From the NCBI GenBank assembly GCA_049999805.1, contig JBNGIO010006141.1, forward strand, positions 213,057 through 260,636: a stretch of DNA of 47,580 nt, read 5' to 3'. This stretch comes from Folioceros fuciformis. Taxonomy: Eukaryota. The notes below the pieces were generated by a model, which worked only from the letters and a program-made list of their open reading frames with translations, made no database searches and had not been told where the DNA came from. Below are positions 1,670 through 45,165 of this stretch, piece after piece (within the stretch, counting starts at the first letter, position 1; each line of letters begins with the position of its first letter). Position numbers and translations under genes: made by a program.

Positions 1670-4600
1670 ATGGCCATACTGTGGCAACCGGATCCCTTGT
1701 GGACCCAACAAGGTGGTGAGTGTGCAAGGCATCTACGAGAAGCTCCCGATCACCTCACCTTATGGAGCCAACGCCTGGGAAACATTCAATCCTGCAGGTA
1801 CAGCAGTGCACAGAACCCAGCACCTCCACTAGCTCCCAGAAAATTTGTGGGTGGGGAAGGATTTTCCAGACATAGTCCTCGCCAGGAGCAGGAGCGCTTG
1901 TGGCATCAATTTTTTCTGGATCCTACCATGTGGTGGGACAACAGGCGAGACAAGAAGAGCTCCCGTTCCCCTGACTTCCGGCGGAAGGGGCCAAGCGGCG
2001 AGGTCCTGTGGTTAAACAGCATGCTCAAGCCAGCTTGGGTGGATGAGCAGCTTCTTTTGTTGGATGTGAGGATGAGTCATGGTACCTATCCTTCCAAGTC
2101 GAGCTCTTCGGATAAGCCTGATCTTTTTCAGCGTGAAGGCTCGAGCGTAGGCGTGGTGAGGCCTGTAACTGTGAGCATGTTATGTCAGCAGGGGAAGCTT
2201 ACTGAGGCAGTTGGAGCCCTGGAAGCTCTGGCGCAGACAAGCTCTGGCATTTCTCAGTCTCTCCTATACACTGTGCTGAAAATATGTACAGCTGAGAAGG
2301 ATTTGGTTGCGGGGCGACGTGTGCATGATCTCATTGTCAAACTTGGGTACGAGACGAATGCATACTTGGGAAACCACATCTTGCGCATGTATGCATGTGG
2401 AGGTAGGCTACAGGAGGCCGTGGATGTGTTGAAAAGGGTAGGCAAGCCAGATGCGTTCATGTGGTTTTCCATTATCTCCGCGCATGCTAAACATGGGAAA
2501 CCCAATGAGGCCATACAACTGTACCATGAGATGCGTGGGTCAGGTGTGAAGGCGGATGCACATGTCTTTGCTGCCGCCCTTCAAGCATGTGCATTTGCCA
2601 GCGACCTGGAATGTGGCAGAAAAGTGCACTGTGATGTGTTGCACAGTGGCATTCCACCTAATGTGTTTGTTGGCACGTCCCTGGTGGACATGTATGCAAA
2701 ATGTGGTGTACTGGAAGAGGCACGCACGGTTTTTGACAGCTTGGTCACAAAAGATGTGGTGACATGGACGTCCCTGCTTGCTGGGTATGCAAATCATGGC
2801 TTCGGCCACGAGGCGCTTGTTCTGTATGGACAAATGCAGACGGAGGGCGTGATTGTGGCTGACCAATTTACTTTTGCTTGCCTTCTCAAGGCCTGTGCCA
2901 GTGCTGGTGCCGTGCAGAAGGGCAGGGAGCTGCACTCACAGATTGTGAAAGGAGGACATCTGAATGACATTGTGTTGGGCAACTGCCTGGTGGACATGTA
3001 TGCAAAATGCGGTGAAGTGAAAGATGCCCGCCTGGTTTTTGACAGATTGGCCAAAAAGGATGTGGTGACATGGACAACCCTGATTGCTGGCTATGCACAG
3101 CAGGGGCTCGGCCAGGAGGCGCTCGTTCTGTACGAACAAATGGAGGCAGATGGCCTGATTTTGGCTAACCATGTTACTTTTGCTTCCCTTCTGAAGGCCT
3201 GTGCAAGCACTGGCTCTCTACACAAGGGAAGGCACTTGCACTCGCAGATTGTTGAAAGAGGCCATCTGAACAACATAGTGGTGGGCAATTGCCTGGTAGA
3301 CATGTACGCAAAATGTGGTGCACTTAAAGATGCACGCCAGGTTTTTGACACCTTGCCTAGAAAGGATGTGGTGACATGGACAGCCCTGCTTGGTGGGTAT
3401 GTCCAACAAGGATTTGGCCAAGAGGCGCTTGTCCTGTACGGACACATGGAGCAAGAGGTCTTAATTTTGGCTAACGATGCCACTTTTGCTTGCCTTCTGA
3501 AGGCCTGTGCAAGCACCGGTTCCTTACAGAGGGGCAGGCAGCTGCACTCACAAATCGTGGACAGAGGACTGTTGCATAACGTAATGGTTGCCACCAGCTT
3601 GGTGGACATGTATGCTAAATGTGGCGAGATGGAAGATGCACGCAGGGTTTTTGATGGTCTGGACACGAAGAATGTAGTAACATGGACGGCCCTCATAGCG
3701 GGGTATGTAAAACGTGGCGAACTGGAATGTGCACGCCTGGTTTTTGACAGCTTGGCCGCAAAGGATACAGTAATCTGGAATACCCTCATTGCTGGGTATA
3801 GTGATCGAGGGCTGGGTCAAGAGGCGCTTCGTCTGTATGGACAAATGCAACAGGAGGGGTTGATTGTTGCGGACGATGTTACCTTAGCTTGCCTTGTGAA
3901 GGCCTGTGCAAGTGCTGGTGCCTTACAGAAGGGCAGACAGCTGCACTCCCAGATCGTGGAAAGAGGACAACTAGACAACAAGCTCGTGGGAACCTGCCTG
4001 GTGGACATGTATGCAAAGTGTGGCGAGCTGGAAGATGCGCGCAGGGTTTTTGAGACCCTGGCCTCGAAGGATGTGGTGACCTGGACGGCCCTGATTGGCG
4101 GGTTTGGTGCGTGTGATCAAGGTCAGGATGCAGTGGCTTGTTTTGAGGAGATGTTAGTCGCTGGTATTCAGCCTGACGATGCTACTTTGACTTGCCTTCT
4201 AGCAGCGTGCAGTCATGAGGGACTGGTGAATGAGGGCCGTAAATACTTTGATTCCATGCTCCCTCGGCATGGCATCAAACCTACTATTGAGCACTACAAC
4301 TGCATGATTGATCTTCTTGGGCGTGCAGGCCATTTGGATGAGGCAGAGAACATGTTGTTATCATGTGAGAGCCGAAACAATGTCGTGGGGTTGACGGCTT
4401 TGCTGAATGCCTGCAAAAGTCACGGGGATATTGAGAGGGCGACACGGTGTTTTGAGAGTCTGGTTAGTGTGGAGCCTCAGACTGCATCCTGGTATGTGCT
4501 CATGGCTAATGCGTATGCGGATGGAGGAAGGTGGAGCGATGTAGACAGGATCGAAGCGCAGAGAAGGGTGGCAAGAGCTAATAAGAAACCTGCAGTGGCG

Positions 4601-4987
4601 GGTATCGAGGTGAAGGAGCAGGTACACACATTTGTGGTAGGAGGGAGCACGGATGACCTGTCTCTCGAGGTAGATAGCACGAATGCACGGCTGAAGGAGG
4701 AAGGGGGACATGTACCACAGACGAAGTTGGTGTTTAAGCCATTGTCCGAGAAGGAAAAGGAAGACGCGCTTTGTGGGCACGCAGAGAAGCTAGCTCTGGC
4801 GTTTGGCCTGTTGAACACTCCGGTCGGGACGCCGCTGGTGGTGACGAAGAATCTGCGCATGTGCGGTGACTGCCACAGTTCCACAGAGATCATGTCAAGG
4901 GTTGAGAAAAGAGTCATCGTTGTGAGGGATGGGTACCGAGTGCATCGGTTCACAGCTGGTTGTTGCAGTTGTAAGGGTCGACCGTGA
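1670..4987 (+). CDS. PLS-class PPR-DYW:KP (GRP-type) RNA editing factor with N-terminal OSB-like PDF motif
   Basis: 1105-aa intronless ORF. Leader MAILWQPDPLWTQ; WWDNR..PDF..LWL motif (1898-2053); PLS repeats; KKPAVAGIEV; CGHAEKLA; CGDCH; ends CCSCKGRP. Confidence 0.95.
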   Translation: MAILWQPDPLWTQQGGECARHLREAPDHLTLWSQRLGNIQSCRYSSAQNPAPPLAPRKFVGGEGFSRHSPRQEQERLWHQFFLDPTMWWDNRRDKKSSRSPDFRRKGPSGEVLWLNSMLKPAWVDEQLLLLDVRMSHGTYPSKSSSSDKPDLFQREGSSVGVVRPVTVSMLCQQGKLTEAVGALEALAQTSSGISQSLLYTVLKICTAEKDLVAGRRVHDLIVKLGYETNAYLGNHILRMYACGGRLQEAVDVLKRVGKPDAFMWFSIISAHAKHGKPNEAIQLYHEMRGSGVKADAHVFAAALQACAFASDLECGRKVHCDVLHSGIPPNVFVGTSLVDMYAKCGVLEEARTVFDSLVTKDVVTWTSLLAGYANHGFGHEALVLYGQMQTEGVIVADQFTFACLLKACASAGAVQKGRELHSQIVKGGHLNDIVLGNCLVDMYAKCGEVKDARLVFDRLAKKDVVTWTTLIAGYAQQGLGQEALVLYEQMEADGLILANHVTFASLLKACASTGSLHKGRHLHSQIVERGHLNNIVVGNCLVDMYAKCGALKDARQVFDTLPRKDVVTWTALLGGYVQQGFGQEALVLYGHMEQEVLILANDATFACLLKACASTGSLQRGRQLHSQIVDRGLLHNVMVATSLVDMYAKCGEMEDARRVFDGLDTKNVVTWTALIAGYVKRGELECARLVFDSLAAKDTVIWNTLIAGYSDRGLGQEALRLYGQMQQEGLIVADDVTLACLVKACASAGALQKGRQLHSQIVERGQLDNKLVGTCLVDMYAKCGELEDARRVFETLASKDVVTWTALIGGFGACDQGQDAVACFEEMLVAGIQPDDATLTCLLAACSHEGLVNEGRKYFDSMLPRHGIKPTIEHYNCMIDLLGRAGHLDEAENMLLSCESRNNVVGLTALLNACKSHGDIERATRCFESLVSVEPQTASWYVLMANAYADGGRWSDVDRIEAQRRVARANKKPAVAGIEVKEQVHTFVVGGSTDDLSLEVDSTNARLKEEGGHVPQTKLVFKPLSEKEKEDALCGHAEKLALAFGLLNTPVGTPLVVTKNLRMCGDCHSSTEIMSRVEKRVIVVRDGYRVHRFTAGCCSCKGRP

Positions 4988-13973: not shown

Positions 13974-16589
13974 TTACGGTCGACCTTTACAAGTGCAACA
14001 GCCATTAGCGAATCTGTGCACACGGTATCCATCCCTCACGACAATGTCTCTTCGTTCAAGCCTTGACATGATCTCGGTAGAACAATGGCAGTCACTGCAC
14101 ATGCGGAGATTCTTCGTTACCACCAGAGGCGAGCCACCGGGCGTGTTCAAGAGACCAAACGCCAGAGCTAGTTTCTCAGCATGACCGCAAAGCACATGCT
14201 CCTTTTCTTTCTCACCCAGTCCATTCAACACCAACTTCGTGTGAGGTACGTGGCCTCCCTCCTGCTTCAGCTGAGCATTCGTGCTGTCTACCTTGAGCGC
14301 AATATCCTCTCTTCTTTCCCCTACCAGAAATGTATGTAGCTGCTTATTCACCTCAATGCTTGCCACTGCAGGTTGTTTGTTAGCTCCTGCTCGCTTTCTT
14401 CGTGTTTCAACCCTGTCTACATCGCTCCACCTACCTGCATCTGCGTAGGCATTGGCCATGAGCACATATGCGGGTGCCTGCTGGGGCTCTAGTATAACCA
14501 GACTCTCAAAACACCTGGTGGCCCTCTCTATATCCCCATGACTTTTGCAGGCATTCAGCAAAGACGTCAGCCCCACAACATTGCTCTGGCACTCACATGA
14601 GAGTAGCACCTTCTCTGCCTCATCTAAATGGCCCGCCCGCCCGAGAAGATCAATCATGCAATTGTAATGCTCAATAGTTGGATTGATACCGTGCTGCTCA
14701 GCCATGGAATCAAAGAGTTTGCGACCCTCATCCACTAGTCCGTCATGACTGCACGCTACTAGAAGACATGTAAAAGTAGCGTCATCAGGCCGAATGCCCG
14801 CAAGTAGCATCTCCTCAAAACAAGCTAGTGCCCTGTGGCCTTCGTCACAAGTACCATATGCGGATATCAGGGCTGTCCAAGTCACCTGATTTTTCGTTGT
14901 TAGGCTGTTGAAGACCCTCTGCGCATCGCTCAGTTTGCCACATTTTGCATACATGTCCACGAGGCAGGTACCTACCAGAATGTTATCCAGCAGTCCTCTT
15001 TGCACGATCTGTGAGTGCAGTTGCCTGGCCTTTTGTAGGGCACCAGTGCTTGCACAAGCCTTCAGAAGGCAAGCCAGAGTCACATCGCTAGCTACAAGCA
15101 GACCCTCCTGCTCCATTTGCCCATACAGACAAAGCGCCTCTGGGCCGAGCCCTTGCTGTGCGTACCCAGCTATGAGAGCATTCCATGTCACCACATCCTT
15201 TGTGGCCAAGCTGTCAAAGACTTGGCGTGCATCTTCCAGTTCGCCACATTTCGCATACATATTCACCAAGCAGTTGCCTAACACAATGTTATCTGGCTGT
15301 CCTCGTTGCACAATCTGTGAGTGCAGCTGCCTGCCCTCCGGCAATGCACCAGCGTTGGCACAGGCATTCAGGAGACACACGAAAGTAACATCGTCAGCAA
15401 AAACTAGACCCTCTCGCTCCATCTGCCCGTACAGAACAAGCGCCTCTTGACCCAGCCCATGCTGGGCATAACCAGCCAACAGTGCATTCCATGTTACCAC
15501 ATCCTTCACGACCAATCTGTCAAAGGCCCGGCGTGCATCTCCCAGTTCACCACATTTTGCATACATGTTGACCACTGAGTTACCAACAAACAAGTCAGCA
15601 GAAATGCCGCTTTGCAATACATCGCTGTGCACTTTTCTGCCGGATCCCAAGTCAGCAGCAAGTGCACAAGCTTGCAGGGCAGCTGCAAAGACGTGGGCAT
15701 CCGCCTTCACTCCAGACCTACGCATCTCATCGTACAGTTGTATGGCCTCGTAAGGATTCCCATGCTTGGCATATGCGGAGATTATGGAAAACCACATGAA
15801 GGCATTTGGTTTGCGTACCCTGGTGAACACATCCATGGCGTCCTGCAGCCTACCTACACATGCATACATGCGCAAGATATGGTTCCCCAAGTATGCGTCC
15901 GTCTGGTACCCAAGTTTAACAGTAAGATTATGAACTCGTCTTCCCGCCACCAGATCCTTCTTAGCTATACACAGTTTCAGCACGGAGTAGAACAGAGACT
16001 GAGAAATAGCAGAGTCGGTGCGCGCCAGATATTCCAGCGCTTCAACGGCCTGAGAAAGCTTCCCCTGCTGACATAACATTCTCACAGCTCCAGCCGTTAC
16101 GAAGTCCAATTCCGATCCTTCACGCCTGGCAGGAGCAACCTCATCAGTAGAGCTGGACTTTGAAGCAGAGGAACCATCAACCATGTGCGTACTCAAGGAG
16201 ATGGGCTGCTCATCAACCCAAGTTGGCTCGAACCTGCTGTTGATCTTGAGGGCCCCGCCGCCGGACCCTCTATGCCGGAAATCAGGCGAACGGGACCTCT
16301 TCTTATCTCGTGCGCTGTCCCGCAACACGGTAGGATTCCTGAAAAATTGTTGCCACACCAGCTCCTCCTCCTGGTCTTTCCCCTGCCCCTGCACCTGCTC
16401 CTTTGGACGAGCATAGCTGGAGAACTGTTCGCCAGCAACAGATTTTTTGGGAAGTAGAAGGGCTGCATTCCGGACACTGCTGTACCTCGCGGCTTGCTTG
16501 TTTCCCAATGGATGGCTCCCTCCTAGCATGCCTGAACACTCAGCATTTTTGGAAGTCCATAACTGGTCCGGTGGCCACAGTGTGGCCAT
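13974..16589 (-). CDS. PLS-class PPR-DYW:KP (GRP-type) RNA editing factor with degenerate N-terminal PDF motif
   Basis: 871 aa. MATLWPPDQLWT leader; VWQQFFRNPTVLRDSARDKKRSRSPDF; PLS array; KQPAVASIEV; CGHAEKLA; CSDCH; ends CCTCKGRP. Confidence 0.94.
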   Translation of the reverse strand: MATLWPPDQLWTSKNAECSGMLGGSHPLGNKQAARYSSVRNAALLLPKKSVAGEQFSSYARPKEQVQGQGKDQEEELVWQQFFRNPTVLRDSARDKKRSRSPDFRHRGSGGGALKINSRFEPTWVDEQPISLSTHMVDGSSASKSSSTDEVAPARREGSELDFVTAGAVRMLCQQGKLSQAVEALEYLARTDSAISQSLFYSVLKLCIAKKDLVAGRRVHNLTVKLGYQTDAYLGNHILRMYACVGRLQDAMDVFTRVRKPNAFMWFSIISAYAKHGNPYEAIQLYDEMRRSGVKADAHVFAAALQACALAADLGSGRKVHSDVLQSGISADLFVGNSVVNMYAKCGELGDARRAFDRLVVKDVVTWNALLAGYAQHGLGQEALVLYGQMEREGLVFADDVTFVCLLNACANAGALPEGRQLHSQIVQRGQPDNIVLGNCLVNMYAKCGELEDARQVFDSLATKDVVTWNALIAGYAQQGLGPEALCLYGQMEQEGLLVASDVTLACLLKACASTGALQKARQLHSQIVQRGLLDNILVGTCLVDMYAKCGKLSDAQRVFNSLTTKNQVTWTALISAYGTCDEGHRALACFEEMLLAGIRPDDATFTCLLVACSHDGLVDEGRKLFDSMAEQHGINPTIEHYNCMIDLLGRAGHLDEAEKVLLSCECQSNVVGLTSLLNACKSHGDIERATRCFESLVILEPQQAPAYVLMANAYADAGRWSDVDRVETRRKRAGANKQPAVASIEVNKQLHTFLVGERREDIALKVDSTNAQLKQEGGHVPHTKLVLNGLGEKEKEHVLCGHAEKLALAFGLLNTPGGSPLVVTKNLRMCSDCHCSTEIMSRLERRDIVVRDGYRVHRFANGCCTCKGRP

Positions 16590-16876: not shown

Positions 16877-19800
16877 ATGAAGGCAGGAGCCTGGCTACCT
16901 GACAGTGCACAGGGAACTGTATCCTTCAACAGAAATTACACAGCACCAGCAGCAGCCGCTGCCCAAACATTGGTTGTGGGCCGGTGTCCGGAGGGAGCAG
17001 GCAACGTGCAAGTTAGTGAGAGTGCCGAGGGTATTTCTTACCAGCACCGGGGGCTGTGCCAACCGGCGGTGAAGGATGCTTGGCAGCTGCAAGGGCCTGT
17101 TGGAACCAGCACCTGCAAGTTGACCCACCACCAGGCTGCTGGCTTGCAGGTCGGGGGAGAGCTTAGCAAGGATGTGGAGAGTTTGGAGCTGCTGGTGCAG
17201 CAGGGATTCCTCCCTCCTACCTCCCTTCTCTACTCCTTGCTCAAGAGGTGCATTGCACGCAAAGATTTGGTTCATGGGAAGCGTGTGCACGCTCTCGCTG
17301 TGGCAAGTGGAAATGGGACGAACCCTTTTGTGGGCAACCACATCATTCGTATGTATTCTTGTCATGGCATGTTGGTGGAAGCAATGCAGGTATTCACTGA
17401 ACTGGATGTTCAAAACACCTTTGCGTGGGCTTCCATTATCATCGCCCATGCGGATCATGGGCAGCCCTCTCAGGCTATCAAGCTGTACCGACAGATGCGA
17501 CTCTCTTGCTTGGAGCCCAATCAGCATGTATTTGTGGCAGCCATTAAAGCGTGTGCTAATGCAGGGGACTTAGTTGCCGGCAAGGACATACATTCTCATA
17601 TTGTGCTGGCTGCGTATGAGCGCCAGCCCTTGATTGCCAACTCCCTCGTCAACATGTACTCAAAATGTGGGAGCTTGGCAGATGCCCGCCAAGTATTCGA
17701 CAAATCGGTGATGAGAGACGTGGTGACGTGGAACACCATCATCGCAGCGTATGCTCACCATGGACATAGCCAAGAGGCCCTACGTCTGTACAAACAGATG
17801 CAGCTAGTCGGCACGACTCCACCCAATCACTTCACGTATGCCAGTGTCTTGAAAGCATGTGCCAGCATTGGTGCTGTGCATGAGGGAAGGCAGCTCCATC
17901 TGCTACTTCGGGATAGTGGCATGGAATGTGACGTCTTTGTGGGAAGCTGCCTGGTAGATATGTATGCAAAATGCGGAAGCTTGGAAGATGCGCGCACGGT
18001 CTTTGACAAGTTGCCCAAAAGAAATGTCGTGACGTGGAATGCCTTGATTGCAGGCTATGCACACCACGGTCTCGCTGAAGAAGCCTTCAATCTCTTTGCA
18101 CTTATGCAGCAGGAGGGTAGCATTCCATTGAATCGAGGCAGTCTTGCATCCCTTGCGAAAGCATGTGCGAGTGCCAGGGCCTTGCACCAAGGAAGGTGGC
18201 TCCACGCACTCATTCAGAAGGAAGGGCTAGAATCTGACTTGGTTGTTGCCAACTGCCTGTTGGATATGTATGCAAAGTGCGGTAGCTTAGAGGATGCACG
18301 TGCTGTGTTTGAAGAACTGCCTACCAGAGATGTGATAGCTTGGAATACAATGATAACGGGATATTCTCAGAACGATCTCGGTGAAGAAGCTCTACATCTC
18401 TATGCTCGAATGCAGTGCGAGGTCTGTACCCCGCCGAATCATTTTACGTTTGCTGGCCTCCTCAAAGCATGTGCTAGTACCAGAAATCTGCATCGAGGAA
18501 TGCAGATGCATGCACTCATCCAAGAGAGAGGTTTGGAAGGCGACGTCATTGTTGGCAGCAGCCTAGTGGACATGTACGCAAAATGTGGGGGCCTGGAGCT
18601 GGCTCGCCAAGTTTTTGACAGAATGCCTGCCAGAAATGTGGTGACATGGACTTCCATGATAGCAGGCTATGCCCAGCATGGGCTTGGACAGGAAGCCCTG
18701 CATGTCTTTGCAAGTATGCAACAGCAGGACGTAAGGCTATGCGATCGGGTCACGCTGTTGTGCCTTCTGAAGGCCTGCACATGTGTTGAAGACTTGCATC
18801 AGGGAGTGCAAGTGCATATGCTGATTCAGGATAGTGGACTGGAAACTGATTTGGTTGTCGGGAGCTCCCTAGTGGACATGTACGCAAAATGTGGGAGCTT
18901 GAATGACGCACGAAGAGTGTTTGACAAGCTGAGCACGAGAGATGCAGTGGCATGGACTGCCATGATTGCTGGATATGCCCGCCAGGGACATGGTCTAGAG
19001 GCCCTGACTCTTTATGCAACCATGCAAGACGAGGGCTTGACCCCAGCCAATCATGCGACTTGTGCTGCTCTCCTCATGGCATGTGGCAGCTTGACAGCTT
19101 TGAGTCATGGGAAGAAGCTTCATTCCCTGATTCAGGAAAGAGGCCTGGAAACTGATGTCGCTGTGGGCAACTGTCTGGTGGATATGTACGTGAAATGCGG
19201 GAGCTTAATGGATGCTCGCAGCGTGTTTGACAAATTGTCCAGTAAAGATCTGCTGGCGTGGAATGCGTTGATTGCAGGATATTGTCAGCAAGGGTTGGGT
19301 CAGGAAGCCCTGGATCTTCATGAGCAAATGCGACATGAGTGCAAACACCTGGTGGTGGCCAATCATGTGACGTATGTGTGGTTGTTGAAAGCGTGTGCAA
19401 GTGTTGGTGCCTTGCATCAGGGAAGGCAGCTTCACCGCCTGATGGCCCAAGCGCAAGGACTGGAAACGGAGGTGGTTGTTGGCAATTGTCTAGTGGACAT
19501 GTACGCCAGATGTGGCTGCTTAGAGGATGCTCGAAAGGTGTTGGACAGGTTGCCCTATAGAGATGTGGTGGCCTGGAATGCGTTGCTGAATGGTTATGCC
19601 AAACACAGTGAGGGGCACATGGCGTTGCAGTGTTTTGAGGAGATGTTGGGGCAAGGAGTGAAACCGGACGGGACTTCCTTCTGTTCTCTTCTGGTTGCAT
19701 GCAGTCATGAGGGCCTGATCTCCGAGGGCCAGCATTATTTCACCGAGATGGTGGATGTCCATGGCATTGAGCCCACTGATTACCATTACAACTGCATGGT

Positions 19801-32000: not shown

Positions 32001-32388
32001 TGGTTAGTTTATATCATATACTTAGATGAATTTATAGTATTATTATTAGTGTGATTATTACTATTTATCAATCTACAAAAGATAAACTAGTTTGAACACC
32101 CAAGTGCAATGAGACTCCACTTGTGTTGAAACTTGCTTATAATTCTACTATAGTAGTGTATAATGGTATTTCTATTTTTGAAAAAAAGATAGAAAGTCTC
32201 ATCTACTCCAAAGATTGGAGAAACAACCCGAGCTAAGCCAAAGGCCAAAAAGGGCACTAGCCCCTTCGAATATCATAATAAAAAACTACTTACTTTTCTT
32301 CGAATGTCATGATGTCGAATAACAAAAGGCCTACCTACCACTGGTGCCAAAGAAGCCGCTTGACCTACGCTTGTTGTTCTTCTAAAAA

Positions 32389-32640
32389 CCGTATTTGCCA
32401 ATGCTCGTTGCGAAGCAATGGATATGCGCTGTTGAAAAAAGGCCACCATAGCTGTATTTGCCAATGCTCGTTGCGAAGCAATGGATACGCGCTGTTGAAA
32501 GAGGGCCACCATAGCCGTATTTGCCAATGCTCGTTGCGAAGCAATGGATACGCGCTGTTGAAAGAAGGCCACCATAGCCGTATTTGCCAATGCTCGTTGC
32601 AAAGCAATGGATACGCGCTGTTGAAAGAAGGCCACCATAG
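32389..32640. repeat. 63-bp tandem repeat x4 inside the retroelement 3' coding region
   Basis: Copies start at 32389, 32452, 32515 and 32578; they encode AMVAFFQQRVSIASQRALANT on the minus strand. Confidence 0.95.
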
Positions 32641-33552
32641 AGGAAAAAGGGAGAACACTATTCCTATTATTCTGATAAACCTTAGCAAACTTCTTTATAG
32701 ACCTTGAAAAGTCCTTGCCCATGGCCCCATGAGTTGCTAGCAAGAGCAAGGTGGATGAAGGTATCTCCGTCTTGCAAGGGAGAATACTTATGGACTTAAA
32801 CACTTCCACAATCCTTCGTCACCCAACTAGGGGGGTTGATGATGACGTGCTCGCAAATCGAATCCTTAGTGGGATCCATAACAACCACATTAGCAACACA
32901 AACCTCTTCCCCACTAGTGAAAAAAAGGTCAGCTCTAATTGAAACGCCATTGCGCAAAGTATATAGATGCTTCCTATGCAGAAGAAACCCACACTCCCTT
33001 GCCATTGAGAACGTGACATTGCGAACTACATCATGGGTGGTGATGCTCCCCAACGGAACAACGTGCTAGATAAGACCCTATATCGATAATGGCAATCCTA
33101 CGACTGCATGTAGACAGAGAAAAAGCCATGGGGTAGGCCAAACCTAAGTGAAATCTCATCACGGTAGCGAAAGTTGTTGGTGCAATTTGAAACGCCTAGA
33201 TGCAAGGTCGAGCCAAAAGCCAAGAGCCCGCTCCTTTACGTGAACAAGATCGAATACGAGCTCAAGAAGACCTAGGGATGGATGAGTCTGAAAGAAGGGC
33301 TCTTAGTGCTTGGCCATATTGCTTTTTTAGGAGGGAGGCTTGGAGACCCCTCAACCCTTCCCTAGAAAAGGAGGTGAAAGGAGGTAGAGCCTCACGAGCC
33401 TCCAAAGGTAGAGAATCCCTCGCTTGCCTAAGAGATATCTATACAAGGAAAATGCCCTCCTCAACGCCTGAGATAAAACCTTCAAGAAGAGGGAAATCTT
33501 GCAGCAAAAAACGAGAGGCCAAAATTGGAGTCGAGAGCGCCCAGCTACCGAG

Positions 33553-33656
33553 AAAGGCAGTTGGTGCAGAGGCCTCCATGGCCGAAAGGCCAACCCCTCC
33601 AAAGGCAGTTGGTGCAGAGGCCTCCATGGCCGAAAGGCCAACCCCTCCAAAGGCAA
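33553..33656. repeat. 48-bp tandem duplication
   Basis: aaaggcagttggtgcagaggcctccatggccgaaaggccaacccctcc at 33553 and 33601. Confidence 0.95.
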
Positions 33657-35619
33657 CCGGTTGGGCAAGGAAGCCTGCTTTTGAGCCAAATCACTAATGG
33701 CACACTCGAAGGTGCCAGGAAGTATGATGTCCTCGAGTTTGCATAACTCGATTGTCAAAGAAAACTAGAGAAGGTACAATAGGCCTAGTAAGGTAACCTA
33801 GTCATCATGCAAAACAAGAAGAAAGAATACCAAATGCAATATGAGGATCACCGATTTGTGAGAGATCCATAATATGAGCCAAATCTTCATCCACAAACTT
33901 ATGAACAAATCAGGAGGTCCCATAGGAACACTCAAGACTCGGAGTCCTTGCGAGGGGGTGATATCCTCCCCCTCCCCCCGGCCCTAGAATATTAAAGGGG
34001 GGGAGTGATGCCTGAAGGGGACCAAACTTTGCATTTAGATATCTTAACCCACAACCCCACCTTGGAGAGCTTTGACGAGAAGAAATCAAATGCTGCTTTG
34101 ACTATGACTCCTTGCCCAAGAATATTAGTCTCATCAGCCACGGAAGGGAAAAGGCATTCCCAAAATGCTGAGGCAGTAGAGGACAATGCTAAAAACTGCG
34201 CAATTGCAAAAAGAGCACCCCCTAGCGGATCCCCTTGCTTTGTGCCTGTTGCTGACGAGCCATAGAAGGAGCACACAAAAAGGATAAGACTTGCCGATTG
34301 AGCTTTGAGAAGATGGCAACCCTGGAGATGATGTTGAAGGCATTATCAATATAAACCTGCAAAGCTACCTAGTGAGGATGTAACTCGAGGGCCGCTTGGA
34401 TGTCGAGGCACCAGATTCACACCCACCAGAGGTGGCAATCGCAAATTTGTGGAGTGCAAGATGCGCTTGGAAGTGCTCTCGAAGTTGAATTGCAATACTT
34501 CAGCTAATAAGGTGCAAAAACACCTACCCCACAACAATAGGACACACTCCTGAGGTGGGCATTTCCAATGCAAGCATCCAAGCATGAGATTTGATTGGGA
34601 ACTTTGTCCCTAGCCACAGCAACCGCTAGTGTATAAAGCTTCGAAAAACCACTTGAGGGATCCTCATGATAAAAATAATCTAAAAAATGGTTAAAAATTG
34701 TGTCAGACAAACCCCCCTGAAGAAAGTCGCGGCGCAGAAGAGAGTGCATGCCCAAAAACAACCTTATCCAAGCAAAAAGGCTCCTCAACCGTGTGGTCAA
34801 GAAGATCTTGTGGTATAGTGTCGTTAGGTTTAGGACGAAGAGCATGAAGTGCAGCAATAGTGTTCAAAGTTGCAGATGTAGCCGGCCTTGGGCGCAATGC
34901 TCTAGCAACCTGAGAATATTTAACCTCTTTGCCCAACATGATATGTCGGTTAAGATGCGCTTTAAATGAGTCATGGCAACCCTTGTCAACCTTAGCTGAT
35001 TTCAATCGAGCTTTTGCTGCTAGTAGATCCTTCTCTTGAAGAGCTTGCCAATATTCGGATAAAAAACGACGAAGTCAAGAGGCCACTACCTATCACCTGA
35101 AGAACCACCCTTAGAGCGCCGAAGGCACCGTCTGGGGAAGAAAAAGAACAAAATCCAAGCATCCTCATCCCTCAGGTCCCGAGCAAGGCGATCCAAGGGA
35201 AGACGATAAGCAAGGCGACTATCATCATGTAGGTGCCTAGGGTGACGTCAAAAGACGCAAGGACATGCAAAAAGACCATGGAAAAGAGCCAACAAGTGAT
35301 CAGATTGCCCTCGAAGACACAACCAAGCCTCTGGGGGCGGCTCTAGAGGTTTTGTTGGAAGAGGATTGGCAGCTGGTTTGGAGGAAGAAGCAAGTAGCAC
35401 TTGTGCCACCTAAGTGGTCTTGTAGAAGTCCTTATGGTTGTGACCAATATGGCACTGCACCCCTTTGAATCTGGAACAAAGTTGAGAACACCTTGGACAA
35501 GGGATATTCTTGACTAGTAAGGGTTAGGTGTCACGCACCATATGATAGAGGCATGTAGAAAGTCTTGTAAAAAGATCAAAACTAAACAGTTGTACTTCCT
35601 TTTGTAACCTATAACCCTA

Positions 35620-37321: not shown

Positions 37322-39817
37322 TCACCATCGACCTTTGCAACTGCAACAACCAGCCGCGAATCGATGCACCCGGTATCCATCCCTCACAATTATGTCTCTC
37401 TGTTCTAGCCTCGACATGATCTCCGTGGAACTGTGGCAGTCGCTGCACATGCGTAGGTTCTTGGTTACCAACAAAGGTGTCCCGCTAGGCGTGTTCACGA
37501 GGCCAAACGCCAGAGCTAGCTTCTCAGCATGGCCACAAAGGGCATCTTCCTTTTCACTCTCAGGCAGTGGCTTCAACACCAACTTTGTGTGGGGTATATG
37601 GCCTCCTTCTTGTTTCACACGTGTATTTGTGCTCTCCACCTTCAGTGCAATATCCTCTCTCCTCTCTCCCACCAGGAACCTATGGACCTCGTTTTTCACC
37701 TCAACAGTCGCCACCGCAGGTTTCTTGTTAGCTCCCGCCACCTTTCTCTGTGTTTCAATCCTCTCTACATCGCTCCATCTCCCTGCATCTGCATAGGCAC
37801 TGGCCATGAGCACATAGGCGGGTGTCTCCAGGGGGTCTAGCTTAACAATGCTCTCAAAACACCACATCGCCCTCTCCAAATCCCCGTGGTTTTTGCAGGC
37901 ACTCAACAAAGACGTCAACCCCACAACATCACTTTCGCCCAAACATGACAAGAGCATCGTCTCTGCCTCATCTAAATGGCCAGCACGCCCAAGAAGATCG
38001 ATCATACAGGTGTAATGCTCGTTGGTCGCTTTGATGCCATGCTCCTCAGCCATGGAAAGGAAGTGTTTGCGCCCCTCCTCCACCAGTCCCTCATGGCTGC
38101 ACGCTACTAGAAGGCAAGAAAAAGTAGCGCCGTCGGGCTGAATGCCGGCAACTAACATCTCTTCGAAACAAGCTAGTGCCTTGTGACCTTCATCACATGT
38201 ACCATATCCACCAATCAGGGCGGTCCATGTCACCACATTCTTTGTCTTCAAGCTGTCGAAAACCTGGCGTGCATCTTCGACTTCACCACATTTCGCATAC
38301 ATGTCCACCAGGCAGGTGCCCACCACTACGTCATCCACGAGTCCTCGTTCAACAATCTGTGCGTGCAGCTGCCGGCCCTTCTGGAGAGCGCCAGTGCTTG
38401 CACAGGCCTTGAGAAGGCAACCAAAAGTAAAATGGTCAGCCAGAATGAGGCCATCCTGTTCCATTTGTCCATACAGAACAAGCGCATCATGGCCAAAACC
38501 TTGTTGGGCATACCCAGCTATCAGGGCATTCCATGTCACCACGTTCTTTATCTTCATGCTGTTAAAAACCTGGCGTGCATCTTTCAGTTCACCACATTTT
38601 GCATAGCCAGCTATCATTGCATTCCATGTGACCACATTTTTTGAGTTCATACTGTCAAAAATCTGGCGTGCACGTTTCAGATCACCACACTTCGCATAGC
38701 CAGCCACGAGGGCATTCCATGTCACCACATCCTTTGTGGCCATGGTGTCAAAAACCTGGCGTGCATCTCTCATTTTGTCACATTTCGCATACATGTCAAC
38801 CAGGCTGCTGCCAACAAACAAGTTAGTGGAAATGCCACTCCGCATCACATCACAGTGCACTTTTCTGCCAGATTCCAAGTCCCCTGCAAATGCACAAGCT
38901 TGAAGGGCAGCTACGAAAACGTGAGCATCCGCCTTCACTCCTAATCTACGCATTGCATGGTACAGTTGTACTGCCTCCGTGGGTCTCCCGTGTTTAGCAT
39001 GGGCAGAGATTATGGAAGACCAGGTGAAAACATCTGGTTTGCCTACCCTGGTGAACACATCCATGGCCTCCTCCAGCCTTCCTCCACAGGCATACATGCG
39101 CAATACGTGGTTCCCCACGTATGCAATCGACTCGTAACCAAGTTTGACAGTAAGATCATGAAGTCGTCGCCCCACAACCATATCCTTCGTAGCTGTACAC
39201 AGTTTGATTACAGTGCAGAGAAGAGACAGAGAAATGCCAGCAGAGTCTGTCTGCGCCAGAGATTCCAGGGCTCCAACGGCCTCACAAAGCTTCCCTTCAT
39301 GACACAAAGTGCTCACGGTAACAGGACTTATGACGCCCATTTCCCATGCAGCACGCCTTCCAGGTTCAGACTTGTTCAACGAAGTCGGCTTGGAGGCAAA
39401 GGCCCCATGACCTATCTGCGTATCCAAGGAAAGGAGTTGTTCATCAACAACCCAAGCTGGCCTGAACATGCTGTCCAACCGCAGAACCTCATCGGCACCC
39501 TTACGCCGGAAGTCAGGCGAACGGGAGTACTTGTCATGTCGTCTGTTATCCCACCAAATGGCAGGGTCCAGAAAGCATTGTTGCCACAAGCGCTCTTGCT
39601 CCTGGCGATGATCATCCTTGCAAAAACCGTTGGCAACCACACAGTTTCTTTGAAGTGCAACTGCTGGGCTCGTCACGCTGCCGCACGAAGTCGCTTGTTC
39701 GTTTGCCGGGGGGCCACTCCCTGCTGTGGTGAGCTGAGCCGGGGTTCCACCCAGGAGCCCTGAACACAATGCAGCGTGTCGGGTCCTCAACGGGTCTGGT
39801 AGCCATACTGCGGCCAT
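37322..39817 (-). CDS. PLS-class PPR-DYW:KP RNA editing factor (ends GRW) with partly diverged N-terminal PDF motif
   Basis: Family-conserved start MAAVWLPDPL at 39817 (alternative upstream ATG at 40042); WWDNR..PDF motif 39434-39589; KKPAVATVEV; CGHAEKLA; CSDCH; ends CCSCKGRW. Confidence 0.93.
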   Translation of the reverse strand: MAAVWLPDPLRTRHAALCSGLLGGTPAQLTTAGSGPPANEQATSCGSVTSPAVALQRNCVVANGFCKDDHRQEQERLWQQCFLDPAIWWDNRRHDKYSRSPDFRRKGADEVLRLDSMFRPAWVVDEQLLSLDTQIGHGAFASKPTSLNKSEPGRRAAWEMGVISPVTVSTLCHEGKLCEAVGALESLAQTDSAGISLSLLCTVIKLCTATKDMVVGRRLHDLTVKLGYESIAYVGNHVLRMYACGGRLEEAMDVFTRVGKPDVFTWSSIISAHAKHGRPTEAVQLYHAMRRLGVKADAHVFVAALQACAFAGDLESGRKVHCDVMRSGISTNLFVGSSLVDMYAKCDKMRDARQVFDTMATKDVVTWNALVAGYAKCGDLKRARQIFDSMNSKNVVTWNAMIAGYAKCGELKDARQVFNSMKIKNVVTWNALIAGYAQQGFGHDALVLYGQMEQDGLILADHFTFGCLLKACASTGALQKGRQLHAQIVERGLVDDVVVGTCLVDMYAKCGEVEDARQVFDSLKTKNVVTWTALIGGYGTCDEGHKALACFEEMLVAGIQPDGATFSCLLVACSHEGLVEEGRKHFLSMAEEHGIKATNEHYTCMIDLLGRAGHLDEAETMLLSCLGESDVVGLTSLLSACKNHGDLERAMWCFESIVKLDPLETPAYVLMASAYADAGRWSDVERIETQRKVAGANKKPAVATVEVKNEVHRFLVGERREDIALKVESTNTRVKQEGGHIPHTKLVLKPLPESEKEDALCGHAEKLALAFGLVNTPSGTPLLVTKNLRMCSDCHSSTEIMSRLEQRDIIVRDGYRVHRFAAGCCSCKGRW

Positions 39818-40199: not shown

Positions 40200-42995
40200 T
40201 CAAGGTCGACCTTTACAACTGCAACAACCAGCTGCGAATCGATGCAGACGATAGCCATCTCTTACAACGATGTCTCTGTGTTCGACCCTGGACATGATCT
40301 CCGTGGAACTGTGACAGTCACTGCACATGCGTAGGTTCTTGGTTACTACCAGAGGCGTCCCACTCGGGGTATTCAACAGACCAAACGCCAGGGCTAGTTT
40401 CTCAGCGTGCCCGCACAGCACATCTTCCTTCTCCTTCTCACACAGTGGCTTCAACACCAACTTTGTATGAGGCACGTGACCCCCTTCCTGCTTCAGACGC
40501 GCATTCGTGCTCTCGACCTTGAACGCAATATCATCTCTTCTTTCTCCCACCGCAAATGAATGCACCTGCTTGTTCACCTCAATGGTCGCCACTGCAGGTT
40601 TCTTGTTAGCTCCTGCTGCCATTCTCTGTGTTTCAATCCTATCCACATCGCTCCACCTGCCGGCATCTGCGAAGGCATTGGCCATGAGCACATACGCAGA
40701 TGCCCTTTGAGGGTCCAGCCTAACAAGACTCTCGAAACACCACATTGCCCTGTCTACATCCCCATGACTTTTGCAGGCATACAGCAATGACATCAACCCC
40801 ACGACATCATGTTGGCTCTCGCATGATAAAAGCAGCTTCTCGGCCTCATCTAGGTGGCCTGCACGGCCAAGAAGATCGATCATGCAATTGTGATGCTCAA
40901 CGGTAGGTTTGATGCCATGCTGTTCAGCCATGCCATCAAAGAACTTGCGACCCTCGTCCACCAGTCCCTCATGACTGCATGCTACTAGAAGGCAAGAAAA
41001 AGTAGCAGCGTCAGGCTGGACACCGGCAACTAACATCTCATCAAAGCAAGCTAGTGCATTACGACCTTCACCACAAGTACCATACCCAGACATCAAGGCG
41101 GTCCAGGTCACCACATTCTTTGTGTTCAAGCTATCGAAAGCCTGGCGTGCATCTCCCAATTCACCACACTTTGCATACATGTCCACCAGGCTGGTGCCCA
41201 CCACTAAGTCATCCAGCAGTCCTCGTCCCACAATCTGTGAGTGCAGCTGTCTGCCCTTCTGTAAGGCACCCGTGCTTCCACAGGCCTTCAGGAGGCAAGC
41301 AAAAGTAACATGGTCCGCCAAAATGAGGCCTTCGTGCTCCATTTGTTCATAGACAAGGAGAGCTTCTTGGCCAGCACCATGCTGCACAAACCCAGCTATC
41401 AGGGCATTCCATGTGACCACATCCTTCAAGGCAACGCTGTCAAAAACTTGGCGAGCGTCTTGGAGTTCACCACATTTTGCATACATGTCCACCAGGCAGT
41501 TGCCCAACACAGTATTTACCAGCAGTCCCCTTCTGACAATCTCTACGTGCAGCTGTCTGCCCTTTTCTATGGCTCCAGTGCTTGCACAGGCGTTGAGAAG
41601 GCAAGCAAAAGTAACACGGTTAGCTACGACGAGGCCCTCCTGCTCCATTTGTCCGTACAAAGCCAGACCCTCATTACCCAGCCCGTGCTGCGCATACCCA
41701 GCAATGAGCGCCGTCCATGTCACCACATCCTTCATAGGCATGCTATCAAAAACCTGGCGTGCATCCTTCATCAGACCATATTTCGCATACCCAGTTATCA
41801 GAGCATTCCATGTCACCATATTCTTTGTTATCATGCTGTCAAAAACCCGTCGTGCGTGGTTCAGTTCACCACATTTGGCATACCCAGCTATCAGGGCATT
41901 CCATGTCACGACATCTTTTGTGGCCATGTTGTCAAAAACGTGGCGTGCATCTTCCGGTTGGCCACATTTCGCATACATGTCAACGAGACAGTTGCCAACA
42001 AACAAGTTATTAGCCATGCCGCTCTGCATCACATCACAGTGCACTTTTCTGCCAGTTTCCAAGTCGGCGGCAAGTGCGCAAGCCTGAAGGGTGGCTACAA
42101 AAACGTGACCGTTCACCTTCCCTCCTGACGCACACATCTCATGGTAGAGTTGTATGGCCTCCTTAGGTTTTCCGTGCTTAGCATGTGCAGAGATGATGGA
42201 AAACCACATGAAGACGTTTGGTTTGCCCACCCTGGAGAACACATCCAAGGCCTCCTGCAGCCTACCTTCAGATACATACATGCGCAGGATATGATTCCCC
42301 AAGTACGCACTCGACTCGTACCCAAGTTTGACGGTGAGATCATGAACTTGACGCCCCACAACCAAATCCCTCTTATCTGTACACAGTTTCACCACAGTGT
42401 ACAACACAGACTCGGAAATGCCCGAGTCTACTTGCGCCAGACATTCCAGGGCTCCAACTGCCTCAGAAAGCTTCCCCTGCTGACACAACGTGCTCACGGT
42501 ACCGGCAGTAACGACACCCGTCCCCGATGTTGCACGCCTCCCAGATTCAGGCTTCCTCGGAGACCTGGACTCGGACGAGGAAGCACCATGCTCCATCTGC
42601 ATATCCAGGGCCATGAGCTGCTCATCAACCCAAGCTGGCTTAAGCATGCTGTTTAACCACAGGACCTCGCCGGACCCCTTGCGCCTGAAGTCGGGGCAAC
42701 GAGAGATCTTCTTATCTCGCCTGTTGTCCCACCACATCGTAGGGTCCAGAAAGAATTGTTGCCACAAGTGCTCCTGTTCCCGGCGACGAGCATCGTCGGA
42801 CCTTCCGTCCCCAGCCACACCTTTTCTCACATGTGGAAGTCCTTGGCTCCTTACGCTGTCGCACCTGGAGGCTATGGCGTTTGGCGGGGGAGCAATCCGT
42901 GCTGTGGTGGGCTGAGCCGAAGTCCCTGCCAGGAGCCCTGAACACGCTCCGATTTGTTGGGTACACAACGGGTCCGGTTGCCTCACTGCTGCCAT
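40200..42995 (-). CDS. PLS-class PPR-DYW:KP (GRP-type) RNA editing factor with N-terminal PDF motif
   Basis: Start MAAVRQPDPLCTQ at 42995, 13 bp from a gap; PDF motif 42615-42767; KKPAVATIEV; CGHAEKLA; CSDCH; ends CCSCKGRP. Confidence 0.94.
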   Translation of the reverse strand: MAAVRQPDPLCTQQIGACSGLLAGTSAQPTTARIAPPPNAIASRCDSVRSQGLPHVRKGVAGDGRSDDARRREQEHLWQQFFLDPTMWWDNRRDKKISRCPDFRRKGSGEVLWLNSMLKPAWVDEQLMALDMQMEHGASSSESRSPRKPESGRRATSGTGVVTAGTVSTLCQQGKLSEAVGALECLAQVDSGISESVLYTVVKLCTDKRDLVVGRQVHDLTVKLGYESSAYLGNHILRMYVSEGRLQEALDVFSRVGKPNVFMWFSIISAHAKHGKPKEAIQLYHEMCASGGKVNGHVFVATLQACALAADLETGRKVHCDVMQSGMANNLFVGNCLVDMYAKCGQPEDARHVFDNMATKDVVTWNALIAGYAKCGELNHARRVFDSMITKNMVTWNALITGYAKYGLMKDARQVFDSMPMKDVVTWTALIAGYAQHGLGNEGLALYGQMEQEGLVVANRVTFACLLNACASTGAIEKGRQLHVEIVRRGLLVNTVLGNCLVDMYAKCGELQDARQVFDSVALKDVVTWNALIAGFVQHGAGQEALLVYEQMEHEGLILADHVTFACLLKACGSTGALQKGRQLHSQIVGRGLLDDLVVGTSLVDMYAKCGELGDARQAFDSLNTKNVVTWTALMSGYGTCGEGRNALACFDEMLVAGVQPDAATFSCLLVACSHEGLVDEGRKFFDGMAEQHGIKPTVEHHNCMIDLLGRAGHLDEAEKLLLSCESQHDVVGLMSLLYACKSHGDVDRAMWCFESLVRLDPQRASAYVLMANAFADAGRWSDVDRIETQRMAAGANKKPAVATIEVNKQVHSFAVGERRDDIAFKVESTNARLKQEGGHVPHTKLVLKPLCEKEKEDVLCGHAEKLALAFGLLNTPSGTPLVVTKNLRMCSDCHSSTEIMSRVEHRDIVVRDGYRLHRFAAGCCSCKGRP

Positions 42996-43431: not shown

Positions 43432-45165
43432 TCACGGTCGAGCTTTACGACTGCACCGGCCAGCTGCGAGTCGATGCAACCGATACCCATCTCTTACAAC
43501 ATCTCTGTGGTGGACCGTAGACATGATCTCCGTGGAACCGTGACAGGCACTGCACATGCGTAGGTTCTTGGTTACCACCAGAGGTACATCACTTGGAGTA
43601 CTCGACAGACGAAACGCCACGGCTAGTTTCTCAGCATGCCCGCGCAGCACATCTTCCTTCTCCGTCTCAGACAGTGGCTTCAACACCAAAGTCGTGTGAG
43701 GTCGTGGCCCCCTTCCTGCTTCAGAAGTGCATTCGTGCTCTCGACCTTGAACGCAATATCATCTCTTCTTTCTCCCACTGCAATTGATTGTACCTGCTTG
43801 TCCACCTCAATGGTCGCCACTGCAGGTTTCTTGTTAGCTCCTGCTGCCATTCTGTGTTTCAATCCTAAACACGCAGACGCGCTTTGAGGGTCCAGCCTAA
43901 CAAGACTTTCGAAACACCACATTGCCCTGTCTACATCCCCATGACTTTTGCAGGCATACAGCAATGACATCAACCCCACGACATCATGTTGGCTCTCGCA
44001 TGATAAAAGCATCTTCTCAGCCTCATTTAGGTGGCCTGCAGGGCCAAGAAGATCGATCATGCAATTGTGATGCTCAACGGTAGGAAGAACTTGCGACCCC
44101 CCACCAGTCCCTCTTGACATCAAAAACCTACCGTTGAGCATCACAATTGCATTACCGACTGCAAGCGACTAGAAGGTTAGGAGAAATAGCACTAACAGGC
44201 TGAACACCGGAGCCTGACATGTCATCAAAGTAGGCTAGTGCCTTACGACCTTCACTACAAGAACCATACCCAGATATCAGGGCGGTCCAGGTCACCACAT
44301 TCTTCGCGTTCATGCTGTCGAAAGCCCGGAGTGCATCTCCCAATTCTCCACACTTTGCATACATGTCCACTAGGCTGGTGCCCACGACTACGTTATCCAG
44401 CAGTCCTCTTTCAACAATCTGTGAGTGCAGCTGCCTACCCTGCTGTAAGGCACCCGTGCTCGGACAGGCCTTCAGAAGGCAAGAAAAGGTGAAACGGTCA
44501 GCCATTATGAGGCCCTCTTCCTCCATTTGTCCATACAGTAGAATCGCCTCTCGTTGCTGTGTATACCCGCGTCCTTGCTGTATATACTATCAATCGGGAC
44601 CGTCCATGTCATCACATCCATTGTGGCCAAGTTGTCAAAGGCGTGCATCTTCCAATTCGCCACATTTTGCATACATGTCAACCATGCAGTTTCCAACAAA
44701 CGAGTCGGGAGCAATGCCACTCTGCAACATTTCACAATCCTATTGCCTGCCAGATTCCAAGCCGGCGGCAAACGCACAAGCTTGAAGGGCAGCAACAAAG
44801 ACATGAGGATCCGCCTTCACGCCTGACCTACGCATCTCATGGTTTAGTTGTACTGCCTCGTTAGGTTTACCACTCTCAGCATAGGCAGAGATGGAGGCAG
44901 ACCAAGTGAAAACATCTGGTTTGCCTACCCTGATGAACACATCCATGGCCTTCTCTAGCTTGCCTCCACAGGCGTATGCCCCCCTGTGGAGGCAAGCTAG
45001 AGGGAGCTCGTCTTATCTCGTCTGTTGTCCCACCACATGGTAGGCTCCAGAAAGAATTGCTGCCACAAGTGCTCCTACTCCTGCTGCTTGAAACGACCGG
45101 CTTCCCTCGGAAATCCGTCCCCAGCCAGCTATATTCTCGGAAGTGGAAGTGCTGGGATGCTTGAG
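43432..45165 (-). pseudogene. PDF-PPR-DYW:KP pseudogene with deletions, frameshifts and inverted insertions
   Basis: Fragments: E*EHLWQQFFLEPTMWWDNRRDK, MDVFIRVGKPDVFTW, HHNCMIDLLGPAG, KKPAVATIEV, RGHAEKLA, CSACH, RCSRKARP (terminal zinc cysteines altered). Confidence 0.9.

Follow-up and report, generated by a model that had tools for sequence, protein, structure and literature searches.

Candidate U-to-C editing genes of the DYW:KP class in a hornwort nuclear island: OSB-type PDF motifs and a probable mosaic origin

The genes described here most closely resemble the DYW:KP PLS-PPR proteins of hornworts, among which GRP and DRH are named variants (Gerke et al., 2020; Gutmann et al., 2020, both as cited in PMC9478123). 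The designer proteins KP1 (DRH), KP2 and KP3 (both GRP) have C-terminal domains that represent the consensus of these gene types (PMC9478123, PMC11332814, PMC11845758) but are built on a synthetic three-triplet PLS array and lack a natural leader or PDF motif, whereas the natural arrays reported below run to 13-26 motifs. KP2 and KP3 edit U to C at 22-26% with zero C-to-U editing, designer KP6 edits in both directions and KP1 is inactive (PMC9478123); activity has so far been reported for no natural KP protein (PMC11845758). In A. agrestis, the number of U-to-C sites is tracked by the number of full-length KP proteins, and C-to-U editing relies on a few DYW donors acting in trans (PMC12548569). 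A second point of comparison is provided by the canonical DYW:PG C-to-U editors (OTP86, DYW1; PDB 7o4e, 7w86, 9kfx), which have the zinc ligands, catalytic glutamate and KNLR lysine in common with the proteins studied here but differ in their PG box, HSE motif, DYW end, four additional residues and placement in a separate clade. The third is the OSB family. In plant OSB proteins, the PDF motif is the part that binds ssDNA (Zaegel et al., 2006, as covered by the reviews PMC4166229 and PMC6963530), and for AtOSB1 these reviews record such binding.

The window, by which we mean the whole stretch of 47,580 nucleotides analysed from Folioceros fuciformis (contig JBNGIO010006141.1, positions 213,057 to 260,636), contains six uninterrupted open reading frames with a C-terminal PF14432 DYW domain (g1-g6; Table 1), which bears out the six intact genes of the preliminary description. 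Its two pseudogenes were also recovered, both frameshifted (25445-26885 and 43435-45155), as was its orphan leader, which contains stops (20589-20756); among the loci fetched, the leader has no close partner (best match 74-75%). The two PLS-E+ units in the long open frame are probably C-to-U specificity factors and not KP genes. Three further intact KP-type genes lie upstream, so the cluster extends beyond the window.

Table 1. Features of the window (positions counted from its first nucleotide).
Feature	Position	Strand	Description
g1	1670..4987	+	leader, PDF motif, 21 PLS motifs, E1, E2, DYW:KP ending GRP
PDF motif of g1, OSB-type	1883..2068	+	69.6 bits with OSB profile
Open frame, 1843 codons	6100..11631	+	pair of PLS-E+ units that both stop after a WKQPGQSWW box; lacks DYW and PDF
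g2	13974..16589	-	degenerate PDF (37.1 bits), 14 PLS motifs, E1, E2, DYW:KP ending GRP, QPAVA box
g3	16877..20479	+	DRH-clade DYW:KP ending DRC, 26 PLS motifs, lacks a PDF motif; uncertain start codon
Orphan GRP-type leader	20589..20756	-	contains stops, no PDF motif
g4	21728..25021	-	leader, PDF motif, 21 PLS motifs, E1, E2, DYW:KP ending GRP
PDF motif of g4, OSB-type	24629..24811	-	81.5 bits; AlphaFold2 model pLDDT 93
ps1	25445..26885	-	GRP-type pseudogene, 5'-truncated, several frameshifts and stops
Decayed retroelement remnant	32276..35074	-	weak match to RVT_1 that falls below the cut-off; separates the cluster halves
g5	37322..39817	-	leader, PDF motif, 13 PLS motifs, E1, E2, DYW:KP ending GRW
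PDF motif of g5	39419-39604	-	48.8 bits
g6	40200..42995	-	leader, PDF motif, 16 PLS motifs, E1, E2, DYW:KP ending GRP
PDF motif of g6	42600-42782	-	78.1 bits
ps2	43435..45165	-	pseudogene with broken PDF motif, tandem sister of g6

The six proteins share the PLS-P2L2S2-E1E2-DYW layout, KP box and HAE of the hornwort GRP and DRH variants, which likewise have a 133-aa domain, Lys88 and a GRP or DRx end and occur in several hundred copies per genome. Each of the six DYW domains is 133 aa long and contains H65-A66-E67, K88, C93 and C96, and the termini read, from g1 to g6, GRP, GRP, DRC, GRP, GRW and GRP; the intact HAE and CxxC and the set of termini thus agree with what had been claimed. A KPAxA box had been attributed to all six genes, which holds for five but not for g2 (QPAVA); this K1Q change and the GRW and DRC ends are the only differences from the hornwort variants in the catalytic domain. 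The claimed shortening of the PG-box region was seen in g4 as a four-residue gap after the first strands, in comparison with the PG structures 9kfx and 7o4e. None of the six domains has the PG box, HSE or DYW end that mark DYW:PG proteins. In a tree that included every third PG row (31 of 93), with KP and PG labels assigned from motifs and not from the published DYW:KP profile, all six fell on the KP side of the split from the PG domains (SH-aLRT 99), as expected from their reported class. Five (g1, g2, g4, g5 and g6) joined four outside GRP proteins in a GRP clade (SH-aLRT 98), while g3, with its KPAKA box and DRx end, was placed outside it, in the DRH subgroup. On their sequences, the six genes are members of the known hornwort GRP and DRH types. 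The residues G64 and V113, which shifted designer KP6 towards C-to-U editing (PMC11845758), are present in all six domains; the essential Lys88 (PMC11845758) is common to KP and PG domains, and HAE does not determine the direction of editing. The idea that any one KP6 residue predicts the direction of editing was rejected.

Because the GRP types are known and their consensus proteins edit U to C, the status of the window genes as candidate U-to-C editors is well supported, the case for g3 being weaker as the DRH consensus KP1 is inactive. Each protein would be imported into an organelle (plastid or mitochondrion), where the motifs of its PLS array would each bind one RNA base, S2 lying at -4, and the uridine would be placed at the zinc site formed by H65, E67, C93 and C96. 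In the published model, which was demonstrated for synthetic proteins only, Lys88 would then attack C4 and the adduct would resolve to cytidine. The six PPR code strings all differ, in line with the preliminary description, and the arrays would accordingly select different RNA targets. Judging from TAT at codon His376 in a DNA contig of mitochondrial depth (6232x), cox1 in the host mitochondrion seems to require U-to-C editing. In a spliced cox1 contig, another codon that probably needs U-to-C editing still reads TCA; this contig shows three differences over 1617-1665, of which the one displayed is C-to-U at 1644. No U-to-C change was found among the displayed cox1 differences of the RNA-like run, in which every listed reference base is G or C, so that U-to-C changes, which would read A>G on that strand, could have gone undisplayed. 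The nuclear assembly gave no match to psaA or psaB and one nuclear fragment of cox1, and an exact-match scan of metagenome contigs for targets gave no match. When g1, the one gene compared by hand, was set against the cox1 His376 site, its code string did not fit.

An N-terminal PDF motif, which had been overlooked in the first reading, is present in five of the six intact genes and absent from g3. Its sequence is homologous to the repeats at the C-terminus of OSB proteins: a profile search with the leader retrieved OSB3 of Amborella at E=1.3e-37, and 27 of the 70 matches scanned carried an SSB domain. The profile search alone revealed this link, the ESM Atlas and a word-indexed search each giving no match to the leader. 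OSB1-4, which are organellar ssDNA-binding proteins, have the same W-F-P-WWD-R-K-PDF-K-LW-P-W motif of 50-60 aa. However, theirs occurs one to three times at the C-terminus after an SSB/OB fold, whereas here a single motif stands N-terminal to the PLS array with no SSB fold (PF00436 had no match in the six proteins). Folding of the leader from a single sequence gave low confidence, and AlphaFold2 modelled the g4 motif confidently; searches with the latter gave no Foldseek match at E<=0.001 and a best Z of 4.4, results that show neither absence of relatives nor novelty. The motif is under purifying selection, with a dN/dS of 0.24 against 0.67 and 0.76 in its flanks and 0.29 in the first PPR motifs. 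Most KP genes of this genome carry it (34 of 39), whereas few of the E+ genes do (3 of 20). As a KP-specific marker the motif was ruled out by its presence on E-class PLS proteins and on one liverwort DYW:PG protein. We found no description of a fusion between PDF and a KP editor in the literature searched, a search that did not cover Gerke et al. (2020) and Gutmann et al. (2020), and the PDF domain on these enzymes may be previously undescribed.

Their KP signature notwithstanding, some of these proteins could instead edit C to U, edit in both directions or bind RNA without editing it. Precedents are the two-way activity of KP6, the inactivity of the DRH protein KP1 and the switching of direction by small changes outside the active site, and in g2 the lysine of the box is gone and the PDF motif is largely eroded. 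However, C-to-U editing is absent from the GRP consensus proteins KP2 and KP3, KP number follows U-to-C sites in A. agrestis (PMC12548569), and some 1100 E+-type candidates in the genome are available for the C-to-U task; we regard this outcome as unlikely. As for the PDF domain, which follows a putative transit peptide in five of the six proteins and has been kept by selection, it would most likely anchor the editor to single-stranded nucleic acid irrespective of sequence, helping it to find or hold its substrate. Since it is not exclusive to KP proteins, any role in U-to-C editing is speculative. It is quite possible, if somewhat doubtful, that it is a passenger from the leader of a founder gene, irrelevant to direction or acting only in import or stability. 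The motif is missing from g3 and from all three upstream KP genes, and of 25 outside KP proteins only three have it; it also occurs on one liverwort DYW:PG protein and on PLS proteins of the E class in ferns and in Selaginella, the latter a lineage without U-to-C editing. Against a passenger stand the confident predicted fold and the low dN/dS, close to that of the first PPR motifs. A bolder proposal is that the natural U-to-C editors of hornworts consist of three parts (OSB-derived PDF, PLS array and DYW:KP), of which PDF keeps the protein at the organellar nucleoid by holding on to ssDNA or nascent RNA there, or aids release of the lysine-RNA adduct; we consider this a long shot.

With about 540 DYW candidates across the 87 Mb genome, the local density of six in 44 kb greatly exceeds the mean, and equal density occurs elsewhere (six matches in 34 kb on contig C5803 and six in 22 kb on C6370). 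The cluster had been described as a tandem birth-and-death array and a locally expanding source of reverse editors. Death is evident in the pseudogenes and orphan leader, and one tandem birth links ps2 to g6, which are 88% identical over the C-terminal 770 bp, have a 3' flank in common and are sisters in the tree. Local birth of the other genes, and with it the expanding source, was not upheld. For all six intact genes, the closest relative among the fetched loci lies on another contig, and the best in-cluster relative of g1-g5 ranks only 23rd to 42nd of 88. An ungapped-penalty BLAST self-comparison found no non-self match of at least 85% over 150 bp between window genes. Monophyly of the seven GRP-type window copies was rejected (AU p=0.0022), a test unable to separate a mosaic island from an old array, and homologous flanks were found in 1 of 28 pairs at the 3' side (g6/ps2) and 0 of 21 at the 5' side. 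Furthermore, a young burst of 12 copies (95.5-98.6% identity) lies on other contigs. Despite the density, the pseudogenes and the tandem pair, a young, locally expanding array is thus highly improbable. It is already contradicted for five of the six genes, unless their off-contig sisters prove adjacent: the assembly is split into 7240 contigs and a contig end coincides with the end of the window, so C4744, C3304 and other small contigs may physically adjoin it.

We think it probable that the locus is a hornwort-type nuclear island of ordinary genome-wide DYW:KP members (five GRP-type and one DRH-type), with distinct targets, a PDF anchor and a mosaic origin. Most of its genes are paralogs of 79-84% identity with their nearest kin elsewhere; local tandem duplication is seen at the ps2-g6 end alone, where g6 is probably a crossover chimera. 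Dispersed duplication has been reported as the main mode in four hornworts (PMC13386178). It is rather unlikely that the cluster was instead an old tandem source array, formed early in the GRP radiation, whose copies later seeded daughters elsewhere or were converted by them, an account that amounts to the preliminary description shifted back in time. Points in its favour are the head-to-tail order of ps2-g6-g5 and ps1-g4 with spacers of about 400 bp, the identity of the window GRP genes, which is about the depth of the star-like radiation, the same-contig sister pairs in other clusters (C5873, C6283 and C5803), and the tandem arrays of many expanded families in A. angustus (PMC7027989). However, flank homology only for g6/ps2, mixed orientations and the interleaving of three PPR classes (GRP, DRH and E+) argue against it.

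In summary, the cluster is an ordinary sample of a known plant family of several hundred members. GRP and DRH genes are already known in hundreds from hornwort genomes and have already been used in the design of U-to-C editors, and in this respect the cluster adds little. Its intronless genes with readable code strings can serve as test cases for natural DYW:KP activity once the organelle editome is known. Selection on the PDF domain points to an accessory nucleic-acid-binding part in natural editors that was omitted from synthetic ones, and the domain bears on how U-to-C editing is completed in plants. If the three-part proposal were true, the missing PDF would be one possible reason why designer KP editors stall crosslinked to RNA outside plants.

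Six-frame translation of the window recovered six uninterrupted PLS-PPR frames with DYW ends (g1-g6), two frameshifted copies and a broken leader, in agreement with the preliminary description. All six DYW domains are 133 aa long and retain the catalytic residues intact (H65-A66-E67, K88, C93 and C96, numbered as PMC11845758 does for DYW:KP), and their termini are likewise as described. The KPAxA box, which had been assigned to all six genes, is present in only five, because g2 starts with QPAVA. The earlier inventory had also omitted the two-unit frame of E+ type (the PLS class lacking DYW) and a retroelement remnant. The two units of this frame are about 72% identical and are separated by a linker of approximately 150 unrelated codons, so that the frame represents a read-through fusion or else a pair of genes between which a stop was lost. 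The contig ends with the window, which makes up its final 47.6 kb. The preceding 50 kb contain three more intact KP-type genes (ending DRK, DWH and DGE, one with a domain of only 120 aa), one broken KP gene and two E+ genes.

Features of the window and of the adjoining upstream sequence, with PLS motifs per array and predicted code string to -4 for the intact genes
Feature	Position	Strand	Description	PLS motifs	Code string
Upstream cluster part (L003-L006)	G000:C6141:183444-210139		KP genes, E+ gene, LTR-retroelement remnant
PLS-E+ gene, 3' end	3-644	+	908-codon frame (also L006), directly before g1
g1	1670-4987	+	DYW end GRP	21	GG.UA.UA.AGU.GG.Y
1843-codon frame	6100-11631	+	Two complete PLS-E+ units
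g2	13974-16589	-	DYW end GRP	14 (one motif pair merged by parser)	UU.UC.AG.Y
g3	16877-20479	+	DYW end DRC	26	AG.GA.UY.UU.n
Orphan leader	20589-20756		Broken
g4	21728-25021	-	DYW end GRP	21	CU.AU.GY.YU.G
ps1	25445-26885		Frameshifted copy
Assembly gap	27606-27705
Assembly gap	28682-29081
Retroelement remnant	32276-35074	-	Decayed, non-LTR-type; 63-bp four-copy repeat in 3' part
g5	37322-39817	-	DYW end GRW	13	UG.GYYU.AG.G
g6	40200-42995	-	DYW end GRP	16	UYUA.UU.AG.U
Assembly gap	43008-43107		Within ps2-g6 spacer, 12 bp upstream of g6 start
ps2	43435-45165		Frameshifted copy

The proposed DYW:KP class was borne out by a tree in which the six window domains were set beside the results of a homology search, namely 27 KP or unclassified (by motif) domains and 31 (one in three of 93) of the canonical C-to-U class, PG. 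The PG domains formed one side of this tree (SH-aLRT 99), leaving the window genes in the KP clade; g1, g2, g4, g5 and g6 clustered with four outside GRP proteins (SH-aLRT 98), and g3 was placed among DRH-type proteins. GRP and DRH have been named as hornwort variants of DYW:KP; two GRP consensus proteins gave 22-26% U-to-C and zero C-to-U editing in E. coli, a DRH consensus protein was inactive, and the fern protein KP6 edited both ways in human cells (PMC9478123). A mechanistic model derived from synthetic proteins involves a zinc-glutamate site and a Lys88 crosslink (PMC11332814, PMC11845758). Each natural GRP protein probably edits in the U-to-C direction, as, with less confidence, may g3 and g2, and the window proteins would be imported into an organelle. 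In the PPR code, TN or SN specifies A, TD or SD G, ND U, NS or NT C, and NN Y. With S2 set at -4 (following PMC9478123), the six predicted code strings all differ, as expected from the differing specificities originally suggested.

The host itself would appear to need U-to-C editing at cox1. No organelle contigs were found in the source assembly for the two genes tried, and a cox1 fragment (L001) was present. A contig of depth 6232 (nuclear depth about 11) from X1, the sequencing run containing the window, matches L001:1502-1684 with a single difference at 1589, and so reads TAT at codon 1647-1645. This codon aligns with His376 of bovine cox1, a heme ligand, and all four alignments displayed have His at this place; TAT here implies a need for U-to-C editing. 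Spliced cox1 contigs of X3, an RNA-like run, listed three C-to-U changes and, among differences listed at G or C reference positions only, no U-to-C change; one retains TCA at a second codon where U-to-C editing is likely. L001:1502-1699 is mitochondrial cox1 copied into the nucleus in unedited form, together with sequence from an intron end, and is nearly identical to the mitochondrial-depth contig.

The locus had been presented as a locally expanding array, and this for the most part did not hold. Searches of the 87-Mb assembly gave 538 and 539 DYW candidates, and a g1 search gave 150 scored candidates, every one at least 76% identical; clusters of equal density occur on contigs C5803 and C6370. 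When closest kin were sought with the terminal 770 bp of g1, g2, g4, g5 and g6 (DNA) and with g3 (protein), the best non-self match of each gene lay on another contig. Among 89 distinct copies, drawn from the top matches to the window genes, the best in-cluster relative ranked 28th for g1, 27th for g2, 23rd for g3, 38th for g4, 42nd for g5 and 3rd for g6. In the gene tree (bootstrap not fully settled), g6 and ps2 are the only sister pair in the window (100/81), and the starred sisters of g1 and g5 lie on C6370 and C3304. Uniting the seven GRP-type window copies cost 263 log units (AU p=0.0022), and flanks were homologous in 1 of 28 3' pairs (g6/ps2) and 0 of 21 5' pairs. The monophyly test would equally reject a tandem array of old origin whose members had since given rise to copies elsewhere; a young array is for the most part rejected. 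In published work, dispersed duplication with signs of retroposition is the main mode in four hornworts, E+ proteins are reported to be enriched in hornworts (PMC13386178), and many expanded families were noted as tandem arrays (PMC7027989). The source genome holds roughly 1100 E+-type candidates; this number, the GRP and DRH types and the genome size of 87 Mb together point to a hornwort host. The cluster is real, yet as an island of a known family it is ordinary.

C4744 has a broken gene resembling the 3' part of g6, the same spacer and a gene resembling the 5' part of g6, and because of this g6 looks like a crossover product within a small tandem unit. C4744 (L177-L178) also shares a non-coding stretch (617-1018, 84%) with window positions 30289-30682; it may represent a duplicate of part of the island or a block next to it, and small contigs may adjoin the window in the chromosome. 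The true recent burst, with fast retargeting, is a young GRP clade on 12 small contigs and not the window. Its members (L010, L012, L017, L019, L020, L021, L023, L024, L026, L028, L030 and L034) are 95.5-98.6% identical across the C-terminal 770 bp and vary in the code residues of their last S1, P2 and S2 motifs.

Approximately 70 residues past the start, g1, g2, g4, g5 and g6 have a 60-aa block in common. Its profile matched 651 proteins among 1.84 billion representatives; 70 of the best 150 matches were scanned and included 27 of the SSB family and 11 PPR proteins. Among the matches that carry names are Amborella OSB3 and an OSB1-like protein from Drosera. OSBs are described as combining an SSB-like fold with ssDNA-binding PDF motifs of 50 aa, present in one to three copies (PMC4166229, PMC6963530). 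A new PDF profile, built on 55 segments from 26 matches with an SSB domain that were picked via the first profile and hence not independent of it, scored 69.6 (g1), 37.1 (g2), 81.5 (g4), 48.8 (g5) and 78.1 bits (g6), and detected no motif in g3. At a threshold of at least 15 bits, the motif was found in 18 of 19 intact frames of a GRP sample (and in the 20th region, a broken gene), in 16/20 of a DRH sample, in 0/3 upstream KP genes and in 3/20 E+ genes; when the g6 motif was searched against the whole genome, 484 candidates were obtained. The upstream WW-box E+ gene also carries it. The motif is under selection: pooled pairwise dN/dS for 17 GRP genes (pairs not independent) was 0.24 within it, 0.67 before and 0.76 after; the first L and S motifs gave 0.29. 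AlphaFold2 (53 sequences) modelled it as a compact helix-strand-helix (pLDDT 93).

Elsewhere, among 120 outside DYW proteins, some perhaps N-terminally cut, the motif occurred in 3 of 25 KP, 0 of 2 unclassified and 1 of 93 PG proteins, the last from Calypogeia. PDF-PLS fusions without DYW were found in Ceratopteris, Adiantum, Pteridium, Diphasiastrum and Selaginella, which is described as lacking U-to-C editing (PMC12548569). That so few outside KP proteins, one PG protein and non-DYW fusions (including that of Selaginella) carry the motif argues against a KP-specific role, and it is very unlikely to matter specifically for completing U-to-C editing; whether it binds nucleic acid here, as an anchor, we consider evenly balanced. 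The PDF-PLS fusion seems widespread in seedless plants (P0277, P0079, P0088, P0090, P0102, P0128, P0130 and P0003): ferns and lycophytes have it, as does a liverwort, there joined to DYW:PG, and some of the proteins contain two or three PDF motifs. We found no mention of a PDF-PLS-DYW:KP fusion in the literature searched, and the domain-fusion section of PMC13386178 does not include it; a mention may stand in Gerke 2020, Gutmann 2020 or Zaegel 2006. This PDF-PLS-DYW:KP architecture is the part of the cluster worth following.
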